NCBI GenBank assembly: GCA_018238625.1
Contig: JABCSY010000071.1
Location: forward strand, 1-20,595
Direction: 5' to 3'
Origin: Promethearchaeota archaeon
Lineage (GTDB): Archaea > Asgardarchaeota > Lokiarchaeia > Sigyniarchaeales > SOKP01
Length of the DNA stretch: 20,595 bases
Each line of letters begins with the position of its first letter. The stretch's first letter is position 1. Shown here in pieces: positions 1 through 3,558 of this stretch. The notes under the pieces were generated by a model. The model was not told where the DNA came from and searched no databases. It was given only the letters and a program-made list of their open reading frames with translations. A program made the translations under genes and the position numbers.

Positions 1-1
1 A

Positions 2-226
2 TCCGATGCAGATAAATTGGATGCGCTAGGAGCAATAGGTTTATACAGAACAATTATATATTCATTTAAATTGAAAAATGGTGGAATAGAGAAAGTAATT
101 GAACATTTAGAAAATAAAATTTTAAAATTGAAAGAAATGATATATTTAGATTATTCAAAACAAATTGCAGAGAAAAGACATAAAATAATTCTTGATTTCT
201 ACAACCAAATTAAAAAAGAAAAATGA
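2..226 (+). CDS. HD-domain phosphohydrolase, C-terminal part (5'-truncated by window edge)
   Basis: Frame is open from nt 2 and reads SDADKLDALGAIGLYRT...AEKRHKIILDFY. DADKLDALGAIG is the typical C-terminal motif of YedJ-like HD proteins. The track's TTG start at 17 is internal. Confidence 0.85.
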   Translation, partial: SDADKLDALGAIGLYRTIIYSFKLKNGGIEKVIEHLENKILKLKEMIYLDYSKQIAEKRHKIILDFYNQIKKEK

Positions 227-235
227 AATCTAAAA

Positions 236-1525
236 TTAGGATATCTTTAGAATCATATTCAATAAAATAGTAAATTTTTCTTCAGATCCCCAAACAATAT
301 AAATCTTGTTTTCAATTGGTACAGCTACTTGTTTCACAGCCATAACCCAATCTTCTCCAACATTATTAGCTGTTTTGGATCCTTTCTCAAATCGAATATA
401 TACTTCGGCACCATAATAATCCAAGATCTTCTTATCTATTATTTTGATATCCTCTAAATCAGGATTTTTGTATCCCCTCTTAATATCATCATCAATATCT
501 TCATAAACAAAAAGCTTAGCTCTTATTTTTTCAAATGATAATTGTAGAGCCGCTCTTATTACAATATGGTTATCAACCGGACTCTCATATTCAAAGATCA
601 ATAATCCACAGTCCTTTTCTACCCCTGTTACTCCAAGATTGTTAAAATCATATTCTTTGCTATACATATTTTGTAAGTCATGCTCCAATTCCGAAACATC
701 AATCCATCCATTCTCAAGTTTTTCCCCAAGAATAAACCGAAAGCTTTTTAGAATCGTGATTTCTGTCTCTCTTTGTTTAATAAAATCGTCAATTATATGA
801 TTCAAGGATATTGCTCTATATTTTTGAGGTTTTCGATCTGATTCAATTACATGTGAAACCCATCCATGTTTTTCTAACCGTTCTATTATCCGATAAATAT
901 GTGTTCTTTTTAAATCCAATAATTCCTTATTAACATTTCCAATAGTATCACCGTTTTCTCCCTTCTTAAGAAACGCTAGATATACTTCTGCTTCTTTCTC
1001 ATTTAACCCAAATCTTAATAAACCTAAATTTTGGAGATTAATAGTGTCATTTGGTAATACTTTTGGGGTAGTCCATTTTAATTCTTCAAGTTTTCCCAAA
1101 GTTGTATCTGAACCCATATATGGTTCCTTCGAACTAAGTTCTCTTAAGATATTAACAGTTTTAGGTACCGCATATAATAATAATTGACCCCCTAGGTTTT
1201 GGGGAATTTTGCATAACACACTTCTCTCGCTATCTTTAAATCCAACTATACTTTCTTGGCTAATTACTTTTTTTTTAGTTTTATTAAAGGAAACGGCAAT
1301 AAGTCTTTCTAAAGTGTTCTGTAATATTGTATATTTATTTCCTGAAAGATAGAGATACCTCGTTTCTTTCTTGCCCCAAATAGAATTAATATGTTCAATA
1401 TCATCACTTAAGTTCCAATTATCTGTAGAGTAAAGTATATCATTTTTTCCATCAATTATTACTGCTGCTATAATTTCAGGATCTTTTTTAATATCAAAAT
1501 CAATTTTAGCCAATATTTCTTCCAT
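236..1525 (-). CDS. Profilin-domain / TrmB-family winged-HTH fusion protein with an uncharacterised C-terminal domain
   Basis: Residues ~1-135 resemble Loki profilins (AAVIIDGKNDILYSTDNWNL; LYLSGNKYTILQNTLERLIA; SIVGFKDSERSVLCKI). Residues ~168-250 form a TrmB-type HTH (LRFGLNEKEAEVYLAFLKKG...KRTHIYRIIERLEKHGWV...KPQKYRA). A perfect GAGGTGA RBS lies at 1532-1538. Confidence 0.8.
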   Translation of the reverse strand: MEEILAKIDFDIKKDPEIIAAVIIDGKNDILYSTDNWNLSDDIEHINSIWGKKETRYLYLSGNKYTILQNTLERLIAVSFNKTKKKVISQESIVGFKDSERSVLCKIPQNLGGQLLLYAVPKTVNILRELSSKEPYMGSDTTLGKLEELKWTTPKVLPNDTINLQNLGLLRFGLNEKEAEVYLAFLKKGENGDTIGNVNKELLDLKRTHIYRIIERLEKHGWVSHVIESDRKPQKYRAISLNHIIDDFIKQRETEITILKSFRFILGEKLENGWIDVSELEHDLQNMYSKEYDFNNLGVTGVEKDCGLLIFEYESPVDNHIVIRAALQLSFEKIRAKLFVYEDIDDDIKRGYKNPDLEDIKIIDKKILDYYGAEVYIRFEKGSKTANNVGEDWVMAVKQVAVPIENKIYIVWGSEEKFTILLNMILKIS

Positions 1526-1546
1526 TCTTTTTCACCTCATTACTTT

Positions 1547-1559
1547 AAAAAAAAAAAAA
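1547..1559 (-). terminator. Oligo-T (T13) terminator-like tract after the actin gene
   Basis: A13 on the + strand begins 16 nt after the actin stop codon. Archaeal intrinsic terminators are U-tracts. Confidence 0.55.
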
Positions 1560-1574
1560 TATATTATAATTAAA

Positions 1575-2720
1575 TTAAAAACATCTATGTATTACTCCGG
1601 GACCCATTTCCTTATATTCTCGTCTCGTTATCCACATTCTATTAAAAGTTTTCAAAGAGCTCAATATTGAACCACCGATCCAAACCGAATACATTCTCTC
1701 TGGTGGTGCTATAATTTTTACATCAATTGATTCTGGAATTAACTCTTTTATCTCCTTTGTTAATCGCTCCTTAACTCCTGGAAACATTGTTGAGCCCCCT
1801 GAAAGAACTATGTTGCTATATAACTCTCTTCGGAGATCAACATCACATTCAGAAATAGCTCCAACAATTAGCTCATCTAAAGGCTCTAATTCTTTCCCTA
1901 TAACCGATGGATTAAAGAAACCTTCTGGAGCCAAAAATCTCTCTAAACCTATGTTAATAACTTCTCCGTCTGGCATCATATAACTTTTTTCCATTCCAGA
2001 TACTCTTTTCGAAAGTACTATTTCCTTCTCAGGATCTACAGCTACATAACACAATTTTTCCTTGATATCTCTCACAATCTCCTTTTCTGCTGAGCTTGTG
2101 AAATTATAACCTCTTTGTCTTAGCAACCTTTGTAAGTATGTTGTAATATCCCTGCCAGCGAGATCAACCCTTTGAATTGCATGACTAAGGGCAAATCCCT
2201 CGAAAATTGGAACTATATGCGATACTCCATCCCCAATATCAAGAACGCAACCCGTTGTTCTACCAGATGCATAGAGAGATAAAACTGCTTGTGTCGCAAT
2301 ATAAAGTGCTGGTACATTAAACGTTTCAAACATTATTTCTGCTAGTTTCTCTCTATTTAAACGAGGATTTAGAGGAGCCTCAGTTAAGAGAATTGGATGC
2401 TCTGATGGGTCCACCCTAAGGTCTGTAAAAAATGTATAATGCCAAATCCGTTCCATTGAAGGCCAATCATCAACCACTCCGTGTTCAATTGGAAAATGAA
2501 GGTTCATAAGACCCTTGAGTCCTACGGCTTCCTCTCCAATATACCATTCTCTTGAATATTCTTTCACATCAGGCATAATGTTTCCATATTTTGGTCTACC
2601 TATTACAGTTGGAAACACAGAACGTGGTTGATCTTCACCGGCATAACCATTTTTAGAAATTCCCGTCCCATTATCTAATACTAACGGTCTTCCACCTATA
2701 AAATCACCATTGACTGACAA
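1575..2720 (-). CDS. Asgard actin (Lokiactin-type), 381 aa
   Basis: Full set of actin motifs: [102 protein letters not shown] and C-terminal HRCF. TTG start is preceded by AAGGGG. Confidence 0.97.
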
Positions 2721-2785
2721 ATAAAACCCCTTTTATTGTTTTTATTTATATTTTCACTTATTTTTATGATAGAAAATTGATTTTT

Positions 2786-2864
2786 TATTTTCTACTTAGT
2801 AGTAAATAGAAATTCGAATATTTAAATGTTGTGACAAAGTGTCACGGTGGGATCACAATCCCAC
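2786..2864 (-). promoter_or_regulatory. Putative actin promoter: TATA box flanked by three palindromes
   Basis: TTTAAATA on the - strand at 2826-2819. GTGACA-N3-TGTCAC at 2831-2845. GTGGGAT-N4-ATCCCAC at 2847-2864. TATTT-t-CTACT-t-AGTAG-t-AAATA at 2786-2808, over the expected TSS. Confidence 0.6.
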
Positions 2865-2938
2865 AAATAAATATTTTTAACTTAGATAGTACTTCATACA
2901 ATATACGATTTTTTTTGAAAAATAAACATTATATATAG

Positions 2939-3103
2939 ATGAATGAAATGAAATGTAAATGCGTAGAATTTCCATTAAAAGAATCTAAAGCCGAACCTAG
3001 AATTAATGAGTGGTTAGAAAATAATAGCAACTTAAATATTAAATTTATTAATCAAGCAATTGTGAACGGAATAAGAAGAGTTTGCTATTATTATGAAGAT
3101 TAA
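2939..3103 (+). CDS. Small protein (54 aa), Cse60/DUF2758-like pattern; not in ORF track
   Basis: MNEMKCKCVEFPLKESKAEPRINEWLENNSNLNIKFINQAIVNGIRRVCYYYED*. The INEWL...I.I.F...YYE pattern fits a beta-alpha-beta-beta layout. A T9 tract follows at 3117-3125. Confidence 0.6.
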   Translation: MNEMKCKCVEFPLKESKAEPRINEWLENNSNLNIKFINQAIVNGIRRVCYYYED

Positions 3104-3129
3104 GATTAATCATTAATTTTTTTTTCCTA

Positions 3130-3558
3130 TTATTTTATATTCGGGTTAATTTTATTCCCACAATCATAACATTCCGCATCGTGAACGCAAATTTCACCCT
3201 TACAAATAGGGCATGTATAGAGCTCTTCTTGCTCCTTTAGCCATTTTTTAGCCCCTATTTCCTTAATTCTCTTCAGATTATTAATCATATTCACAAAATA
3301 TTTCTCTTTATAATGATTATCAATTTTTTTTAGCTTATCGCAAGGAAAAACTTCACATTCAAAACAAAATTCAATTTCCCCTTTCCTCAATAGAGAACAA
3401 TCTCTTCTTATAAACGCGCAATTTTTATTCCTAATACGGCAACCCTTACAGCCCACTTTATAGCCCCTCTCTTTAAGTAAATCCTTTTTCCAAAGAAGAT
3501 ATTGCCGGCAAGCACCACAATAAATTCCACATGGAGCTGCTAAATTATTTTCATACAT
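3130..3558 (-). CDS. DUF3795-family cysteine-rich protein with C-terminal zinc-ribbon-like motif
   Basis: APCGIYCGAC, CKGCR, CAFIRRDC, FCFECEVFPC, NLKRIKEIG, then CPIC...CYDCG. Confidence 0.85.
   Translation of the reverse strand: MYENNLAAPCGIYCGACRQYLLWKKDLLKERGYKVGCKGCRIRNKNCAFIRRDCSLLRKGEIEFCFECEVFPCDKLKKIDNHYKEKYFVNMINNLKRIKEIGAKKWLKEQEELYTCPICKGEICVHDAECYDCGNKINPNIK

Follow-up and report, generated by a model that had tools for sequence, protein, structure and literature searches.

The stretch of DNA analysed here, which we call the window, comprises 20,595 nucleotides (nt) of a Promethearchaeota archaeon (assembly GCA_018238625.1, contig JABCSY010000071.1, positions 1-20,595 of the forward strand) and carries near its beginning two co-oriented open reading frames (ORFs) on the minus strand. 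The upstream one codes for an actin and the downstream one, which follows after a spacer of 49 bp, for a protein of 429 amino acids (aa) in which a profilin domain is joined to a TrmB-type winged helix-turn-helix (Table 1). This arrangement had been described by a model that saw the letters of the DNA only (below, the sequence-only reading), together with the proposal that the fusion protein senses actin monomers and regulates transcription of the actin gene; gene order, distance and orientation were as described. We refer to the two genes as the cassette and to the fusion protein as the regulator. In our numbering, the window is contig C16 of assembly G000, and L, G and P numbers stand for loci, genomes and proteins, respectively.

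The regulator contains the strings STDNWNLSDD and SGNKYTILQNTLERLIAVS. In a single-sequence phmmer search, residues 14-81 matched LokiProfilin2 (5zzb_A, E 8.2e-6) and LokiProfilin1 (5yed_A, E 2.8e-5), and a profile of 37 family members (alignment A1) reached 5yed with E 1.3e-13, 5zzb with E 9.6e-13, the Thor profilin 7pbh with E 1.7e-7 and the Odin profilin 5zza with E 4.3e-10, the latter over positions 17-121 and nearly the full length. The AlphaFold2 (AF2) model of the whole protein had a mean predicted local distance difference test score (pLDDT) of 66.7, with blocks of 70-88 in the N-terminal domain, and in this head a helix at 2-13, seven strands and a helix at 115-129 form an arrangement of helices on a central antiparallel sheet. 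When the head was compared with 48,161 chains by VIA-align, LokiProfilin1 (5yed_A) came first with a Z score of 15.5 and a root-mean-square deviation of 2.6 Å over 123 residues, yeast profilin reached Z 14.6, and roadblock proteins scored lower (Z 10-12). The top five PDB matches of Foldseek were Loki and Odin profilins, and eukaryotic profilins came next. The Pfam family Profilin (PF00235) did not match the protein of the window at E<=1, and matched the head relatives P0154 and P0174 with E 2.5e-4 and 7.5e-4, respectively, under the 25-bit cut-off. Based on the sequence and profile matches and on the ranking of the fold over the roadblock proteins, the head is a true profilin homologue and more than a profilin-like fold, which bears out the Loki-type profilin that the sequence-only reading had recognised.

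The head was full-length in all 37 aligned members of the family, with W37 invariant and Q69, G95 and D98 near-invariant. Within the genome, the head is most closely related to a profilin of 200 aa that carries a helical tail (42% identity, common motif G.KD.E); a helical-tail paralogue of about 200 aa is found in nearly all genomes of the family and lies here on contig C22, with a 210-aa relative on C119. Other relatives of the head were joined to a Ras-family GTPase (P0169, P0174), Sir2 (P0164), a leucine carboxyl methyltransferase (P0203) and a zinc ribbon (P0195), and, judged from these sequences, the profilin seems to move between proteins as a module within this lineage.

Behind a linker, residues 171-241 matched the Pfam family TrmB (PF01978) with E 7.1e-11 and 42.2 bits at a cut-off of 25.6, and the fold of this part matched TrmBL2 (5bpd_A, Z 9.9), so that the winged helix is intact, as had been claimed. 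K206, R207, I210 and Y211 of its recognition helix are invariant in the 37 sequences. The C-terminal domain gave no clear match in structure searches with Foldseek (best E 0.012) and VIA-align (48,161 chains, best Z 6.0) and no usable match in the ESM Atlas; the best VIA-align match, of Mog1/PsbP/SciW-like type, is at background level. Since none of the 37 C-terminal domains matched the TrmB sugar-binding domain PF11495 at E<=1, the regulator is a protein with a TrmB DNA-binding domain and without the sugar sensor. The C-terminal domain has the invariant motifs NGW, D305/G307 and W393/W412, and winged helix and C-terminal domain also occur together in TrmB proteins of about 290-310 aa without a profilin head. 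A short paralogue of this kind (about 280-305 aa) is often found 1-7 kb downstream of the cassette (e.g. G255:C26:74535-75455, G279:C34:305642-306544, G210:C6:642331-643140 and G174:C116:4554-4886) and is the second member of a regulator cluster in L003, L020, L025, L030 and L034.

A word-indexed search yielded 147 homologues of the regulator at E<=1e-3 with identities of 44-100%. Among the 120 of the 147 matches listed, nearly all cover 93-100% of the query and a few 68-86%; the homologues among the matches listed all carry PF01978, and their names are limited to 'helix-turn-helix domain-containing' or 'predicted transcriptional regulator'. For the linkage survey, one genome per species was taken, resulting in 46 loci encoding a relative, and these loci were searched by tblastn with the actin of the window. 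An actin on the same strand lay directly upstream in 42 of the 46 loci, and the synteny in relatives that the sequence-only reading had asked about is therefore the rule. Of the four unlinked loci, L044 has the start of its contig within the regulator, L043 and L046 retain remnants, and L036, with a complete regulator and no actin, is a true exception. The remnants are C-terminal pieces of the regulator of 88 aa (L046:5001-5249) and 109 aa (L043:5001-5327), both without actin, and the one at L046 sits between the glyoxalase and HD genes that usually flank the cassette. At L012 the C-terminal half is all that is left of the actin (L012:3217-3777), before an intact regulator. From their sequences, the remnants at these three loci look like traces of cassette decay.

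Among 301 genomes from the phylum that were scanned with a profile, the full-length protein was present in 23 of the 69 genomes of the window's family, its own genome included, and in none of the 232 genomes of 29 other families, three of which had partial matches only. The Asgard-wide survey suggested with the first description thus places the fusion in relatives within one family, and a general occurrence in Asgard archaea did not hold up. A query with residues 160-429 gave no match at E<=0.001 in G065, G083, G204, G213 and G165 (same genus and sister family), and three genomes of the same genus without a match to these residues are 98-100% complete. The patchy presence together with the remnants suggests that the cassette is old and was lost more than once. 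Our assembly G000 is the only one among the 23 regulator-bearing genomes with two cassettes, the one of the window and one at C47:14263-16932; their regulators are 53% and their actins 85% identical, and an HD-domain gene comes after each of them (protein identity 84-85%). As contamination of this assembly is 7.6%, the two cassettes may come from two organisms binned together. At loci with a long gap of 225-600 bp between actin and regulator, a conserved ORF of 47-83 aa was clear in 21 of 23 cases (e.g. L004:4741-4950, L009:4753-4950 and L024:3120-3326), so that half of the cassettes consist of three genes; the window lacks this ORF. Its product has the pattern M.(K/R)IK.IDGIPCI.LD.G ... IQESKE..Y..VL.ELKKKFGEK and matched no Pfam family.

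The sequence-only reading had called the upstream gene an Asgard actin. It is an actin (Table 1), but tree and genome comparison place it as an optional second paralogue rather than the main lokiactin. The assembly of the window has three close lokiactin genes, on C16 (the window), on C47, where a regulator also follows, and on C138, where the gene stands alone; the actin of the window is 82% identical to this free lokiactin. Five genomes without the regulator have one lokiactin each, 80-83% identical to that of the window, and five cassette genomes each have this near-invariant free lokiactin plus a linked actin. In a quick IQ-TREE tree of 72 rows, from which three duplicate rows, two distant Arp-like rows and the interrupted L042 had been left out, the 11 free lokiactins formed one clade with a support of 100 and almost no internal divergence, and all 53 linked actins fell outside this clade on longer branches. 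Because of this placement and of the retained free lokiactin, the linked actin is an optional, faster-evolving accessory paralogue and not the main cytoskeletal gene. Some Loki-type archaea would accordingly have two isoforms of actin, of which one is constitutive and the other under separate control. At window positions 2718-2720 and the homologous codon of L002-L045 (50 linked rows, 5 of them duplicates), the start codon was ATT in 22, TTG in 9 (including the window) and ATG in 19 rows. In the ATT rows, no canonical start lies close by and a GAGGTGG ribosome site is found 7-8 nt upstream, and in L008, L011 and L048 a TAA stop immediately precedes the ATT. All 11 free lokiactins start with ATG and have the acidic N-terminus MAEEESF. 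Going by these codons, weak starts may act as a translational throttle on the spare actin.

The complex of the linked actin (28-row alignment A2) and residues 1-135 of the regulator (A1) was predicted in three runs with controls. In the calibration of the tool, the mark had been passed by 58 of the 80 solved complexes and by 2 of the 110 mismatched pairs. The interaction score derived from predicted aligned errors (ipSAE) was 0.81 (median of three runs) compared to 0.00 for the best control, at least 86% of the contacts were common to the runs, and the pLDDT of the partner was at least 82. The modelled interface on actin consists of residues 173-180, 293-299 and 358-381, which correspond to the barbed-end face between subdomains 1 and 3 that is used by profilins. 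On the head it consists of the strands at 66-89 (66-74 and 86-89), residues 96 and 98 and the C-terminal helix at 114-132, with the near-invariant Q69 in the centre and among the contacts of lowest error. The modelling with the neighbouring actin that had been suggested with the first description thus puts the head on the profilin site, and it shows that the head still resembles an actin-binding profilin, a likeness in a predicted model and not binding. Identity to the protein of the window, when compared with the identity of the linked actins, gave a Spearman coefficient of 0.77 for the head, a weak 0.40 for the C-terminal domain and 0.04 for the winged helix. In L003, L005 and L007, the actins are 90-96% and the heads 67-87% identical to those of the window, but winged helix and C-terminal domain only 39-52%. 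This co-variation fits co-evolution of head and actin and, equally well, a recombination breakpoint in the linker, as the head is encoded right beside the actin.

These data bear on an explanation that we regard as unlikely, yet far from negligible, namely that the protein is a dedicated regulator of the spare actin without being an actin sensor. The C-terminal domain would then read a small molecule or a partner protein, and the head would serve in oligomerisation, in localisation or in binding of another ligand, or would be a decaying remnant. The strong conservation of the C-terminal domain and its presence in the TrmB proteins without a head, which makes it the ancestral partner of the winged helix, argue for such a role, and so do the fusions of profilin-like domains to the unrelated Ras-like GTPase, Sir2, methyltransferase and zinc ribbon in this lineage. 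The head is also the fastest-evolving part of the protein, with 28-45% identity outside the window's clade, which could reflect a relaxed or changed function. Against this explanation stand the full length of the head and its invariant and near-invariant positions in the 37 members, a modelled actin interface that uses these conserved positions and passes the controls, and a fusion that occurs almost only beside an actin gene.

Several palindromes had been noticed in the actin promoter. They are present and are part of an operator-like element that is conserved across the family. Its family consensus is TTGTCAC-N6-GTGACAA, followed 2-4 nt later by TTTAAATA, in almost every locus. We counted in 46 distinct upstream regions of linked actins, after duplicates, regions with less than 260 nt available, actin matches of less than 340 residues and L042 had been dropped. 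TGTC[AG]C-N6-G[TC]GACA was found in 34 of these 46 regions and the everted form in 3; a half-site stands 2-4 nt before TTTAAATA in 41, and every one of the 46 has at least one GTGACA/TGTCAC hexamer, with 2-3 half-sites per promoter. The hexamer was absent from all 11 upstream regions of free lokiactins, in genomes with or without the cassette, and at the 46 loci this palindrome was never found in the gap between actin and regulator. The recognition helix is unchanged across subfamilies with TGTCGC or TGTCAC as distal repeat. The exact TGTCAC-N6-GTGACA occurs in 22 of 101 genomes of the family, always with one site each, and the reversed control gave 0. Among the 69 genomes scanned for both, the palindrome was present in 14 of the 23 with and in 1 of the 46 without the regulator, and all 14 sites in regulator genomes lie on the same contig, 1-3 kb from the regulator; these counts are descriptive and carry no test because the genomes are kin. 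In the genome of the window, TGTCAC-N6-GTGACA occurs once, before the C47 actin, and GTGACA-N3-TGTCAC once in 4.29 Mb, before the actin of the window. Allowing one mismatch and spacers of 5-7 nt, the C47 actin promoter and one other site were found, compared to 3 in the control, and neither the exact nor the one-mismatch genome scan gave a further credible site of a wider regulon. TrmBL1/Tgr bind the Thermococcales glycolytic motif (TGM) TATCAC-N5-GTGATA, and the site leads to activation when upstream of the B recognition element (BRE)/TATA box and to repression when downstream, according to the review PMC4158304.

The promoter of the window reads TGTGAT-N6-GTGACA-ctt-TGTCAC-AACA-TTTAAATA, and its upstream part can equally be read as GTGGGAT/ATCCCAC. 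L063 of the same clade has the same arrangement, TGTCAC-N6-GTGACA-gat-TGTCAC-AAT-ATTTAAATA, and other members of the clade have three half-sites in other orientations. By our reading of these sequences, TGT[C/G]ACA is nearly self-complementary, so that one change in its centre would turn a half-site round. The clade also retains, behind the TATA box (window 2760-2815, minus strand), the block TTTCTATTTACTACTAAGTAGAAAATA and about 30 nt further on a second TTATTTTCTA; at the predicted transcription start, the block could fold into a short hairpin or be read as a TACT..AGTA palindrome. The palindrome within it, CTACT-A-AGTAG, resembles the TrmB site TACT-N3-AGTA given in PMC4158304. The distance from operator and TATA box to the actin start is 170-225 nt in many loci (L002, L011, L014-L019, L022, L023, L026-L028, L030, L035, L038 and L045), about 70-90 nt in others and about 115-130 nt in the window's clade, so that some linked actins have putative long leaders. 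In G313, a genome of the family, 28 places (e.g. L094-L098), most of them at contig ends, have a repeat end with a GC-rich hairpin followed by GGTGACAAGATTTAAATA; this repeat shares half-site and TATA box with the linked actin promoter, lacks the second half-site, and is probably a mobile element with a similar promoter.

Co-occurrence and adjacency suggest that the regulator is the protein that would bind the TATA-adjacent palindrome. It is quite improbable, in our judgement, that another factor binds there and that the regulator gene only happens to share the transcription unit of the actin, its product having a role elsewhere or chiefly as a profilin. The complete regulator without actin at L036 would fit such a case, as would the 9 of 23 regulator-bearing genomes without the exact palindrome, in 6 of which the looser pattern of half-site plus TATA box gave cassette sites. 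What speaks for the regulator instead is that palindrome and regulator occur in the same genomes and side by side in 14 of 14 cases, that the free lokiactin promoters lack the hexamer, and that TrmB-family proteins bind motifs of this kind (PMC4158304).

Table 1 Features of the actin-regulator cassette and its promoter in the window.
Feature	Position	Strand	Basis
Linked (accessory) lokiactin paralogue, 381 aa, TTG start	1575..2720	-	ORF list; Pfam Actin E 5.3e-129
Profilin-TrmB regulator gene, 429 aa, ATG start	236..1525	-	ORF list
49-bp spacer: T13 run 1547-1559, then GAGGTGA ribosome-binding site 1532-1538, then ATG	1526..1574	-	Sequence reading
N-terminal profilin domain, residues 1-135	1121..1525	-	PDB sequence matches to Loki, Odin and Thor profilins; fold match; complex model
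Linker, residues 136-170 (pLDDT <50 over 134-171)	1016..1120	-	AF2 confidence; conserved motif SKEPYM...LGK..ELKW.TP
TrmB-type winged helix-turn-helix, residues 171-241, recognition helix KRTHIYRI	803..1015	-	Pfam, alignment, fold
Conserved C-terminal alpha/beta domain, residues 262-429	239..742	-	AF2 folded alone, mean pLDDT 71.8
Operator-like element: GTGGGAT/ATCCCAC palindrome plus everted repeat GTGACA-ctt-TGTCAC abutting TATA box	2831..2864	-	Sequence
Palindrome GTGGGAT/ATCCCAC	2858-2864/2847-2853	-	Sequence
Everted repeat GTGACA/TGTCAC, then AACA and TTTAAATA	2840-2845/2831-2836	-	Sequence
TATA box TTTAAATA, linked actin promoter (predicted)	2819..2826	-	Invariant in 10-sequence promoter alignment
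Second palindrome CTACT-A-AGTAG near predicted transcription start, in block conserved in window's clade	2792..2802	-	Sequence, alignment

The cassette has conserved chromosomal surroundings, with a squalene-cyclase-like gene, DUF3795, an ABC ATPase and a glyoxalase upstream and HD, an AMP-binding enzyme and a HEAT-repeat gene downstream. The remaining genes of the window have no cytoskeletal relation; among their products are DUF3795, a squalene-cyclase-like protein, an ICMT-like methyltransferase, aldehyde ferredoxin oxidoreductase, pyruvate kinase, TFB and a ClpB-like ATPase. Pfam named no integrase on representatives of 13 flank gene families, and no relatives were found in IMG/VR viral contigs or PLSDB plasmids; PLSDB probably contains no plasmids of Asgard archaea. 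An origin from a mobile element was rejected on these grounds. An Rfam scan of window positions 1-3200 at E<=1 found no RNA family.

In type II partition systems (ParMRC), a cis site is followed by the gene for an actin-like protein and that for a DNA-binding adaptor (parC-parM-parR), and the cassette has the same order. It could accordingly be read as a DNA-positioning device, with the palindrome as a centromere-like site, the regulator as a ParR-like adaptor with profilin heads that hold on to the barbed end of linked-actin filaments or feed it, a locus that is moved or anchored in this way, and promoter control as a by-product. We consider this very unlikely. In its favour are the exactly one site per genome, an actin that is an optional, faster-evolving paralogue, a head that is modelled on the barbed-end cleft and the co-variation of head and linked actin. 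However, the site keeps a set distance of 2-4 nt to the TATA box in 41 of 46 promoters and consists of 2-3 half-sites rather than an array, the chromosomal neighbourhood is conserved and Pfam named no integrase among 13 flank gene families, the cassette has been lost repeatedly (L043, L046), and viral contigs and plasmids yielded no relative. Plasmid actins are highly divergent, whereas the linked actin still shares about 80-85% identity with lokiactin. In its most explicit form, a dimer of the regulator on the single palindrome would capture or feed a filament end with its two heads like ParR or a formin; to this we give just as slight a credence. If true, one chromosomal site would be pushed or anchored by a near-eukaryotic actin, a prokaryotic forerunner of cytoskeleton-driven genome positioning.

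We regard as solid the domain architecture, the linkage to actin, the status of this actin as a paralogue, and the conservation and uniqueness of the operator. Beyond this, we infer, with a confidence that stays somewhat short of even, that the cassette is an optional two-gene unit of one family of Loki-type Asgard archaea in which a dedicated one-promoter regulator of a spare actin is bound to the palindrome and reads the pool of monomeric actin with its profilin head. The regulator would dimerise via the helix after the winged helix, and the dimer would bind the inverted repeat overlapping the BRE position. Binding would set transcription of the linked actin, and the regulator mRNA would arise by read-through past the T13 run. 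In 16 of 20 short-gap loci, the stop codon of the actin is followed by T runs of at least 7; the T13 run suggests a leaky terminator between the two genes and, with its recurrence, a regulator that is made by limited read-through. The profilin head would bind monomeric actin on its barbed-end face, and a 42-kDa actin held about 35 residues from each winged helix would alter the occupancy of the operator, so that the spare actin would track the free-actin pool. We favour an MRTF-like logic in which the free regulator would activate and the actin-bound regulator would be inactive, as TrmBL1/Tgr sites upstream of BRE/TATA activate; the overlap with the BRE position would allow repression as well. 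The conserved operator suggests that the cell tunes its extra actin by sensing actin itself, and an actin-gated regulator is plausible, with head-actin binding, operator binding and their coupling as the three inferred steps.

Several observations weigh against this actin-sensing proposal, in addition to the rapid evolution of the head and the genomes without the exact palindrome mentioned above. The conserved C-terminal domain could be an alternative or a second sensor. The complex prediction may have passed by memory, because profilin-actin complexes have been solved, including Loki and Odin profilin with rabbit actin, and the co-variation of head and actin is confounded by the adjacency of their genes, with rows that are related and in part duplicates. 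The operator of the window is rearranged, being everted with a 3-nt spacing, and because the TATA-proximal half-site also occurs in the multi-copy element of G313, part of its conservation may be due to promoter strength. Contigs from RNA libraries (90-99% likeness) map to positions 340-844 in the regulator and to about 1800-2700 in the actin, with small shares of 0.08 and 0.07 in two runs; they give neither start nor strand nor level, and since none of them bridges the spacer, co-transcription is neither supported nor contradicted.

Full-text literature searches, judged by their result lists, turned up no account of Asgard archaea with a fusion of profilin and DNA-binding domain or with a regulator linked to actin, and term searches within two Nature papers on Lokiactin (PMC13716822 and PMC9834061) gave no mention of either. 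These papers count three profilins in L. ossiferum and report actin co-immunoprecipitation. The profilin-TrmB architecture is real and undescribed, in line with the sequence-only reading, which did not know of it either. If the cassette were wired as proposed, it would be the first candidate for a link from the state of the cytoskeleton to gene expression outside eukaryotes, and it would be made of archaeal parts. We know of no mechanism by which these cells control the amount of their actin. As the system is small, with one protein, one 35-bp operator and one actin, it is directly testable in vitro with recombinant proteins.

Compared to known systems, the likeness to ParMRC lies in the gene order and in a site that overlaps the promoter; unlike ParMRC, the cassette is chromosomal in a conserved neighbourhood, has a single palindrome instead of a repeat array, and combines a close lokiactin paralogue with an adaptor that is unrelated to ParR. 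To the stand-alone Asgard profilins (LokiProfilin1 5YED/5YEE, LokiProfilin2 5ZZB, OdinProfilin 5ZZA and Thor 7PBH) the head is homologous (profile E 1.3e-13 to 1.7e-7), with the same fold (Z 15.5 and 14.3), the common motifs NW..S.D and ILQ..ER and a predicted position on the same face of actin; unlike them, it heads a 429-aa DNA-binding protein. With TrmB, TrmBL1/Tgr and TrmBL2 of the Thermococcales, the regulator has the PF01978 winged helix in common, with a fold match to TrmBL2. Going by PMC4158304, its TGTCAC-N6-GTGACA resembles the TGM and stands upstream of the TATA box as at promoters activated by TrmBL1/Tgr, and its lack of PF11495, which TrmB and TrmBL1 carry, is as reported for TrmBL2. 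It differs from this family in its C-terminal domain, its added N-terminal profilin and an apparent regulon of one promoter. The eukaryotic G-actin/MRTF-SRF circuit, finally, is not homologous, and none of the nine Pfam matches at E<=1 was to an RPEL family. The proposed system would be analogous to it in its logic only, in that a regulator with a module for actin monomers has an actin gene as its target; the sensor would be a profilin instead of RPEL, and DNA would be bound directly via the TrmB winged helix and not through SRF.

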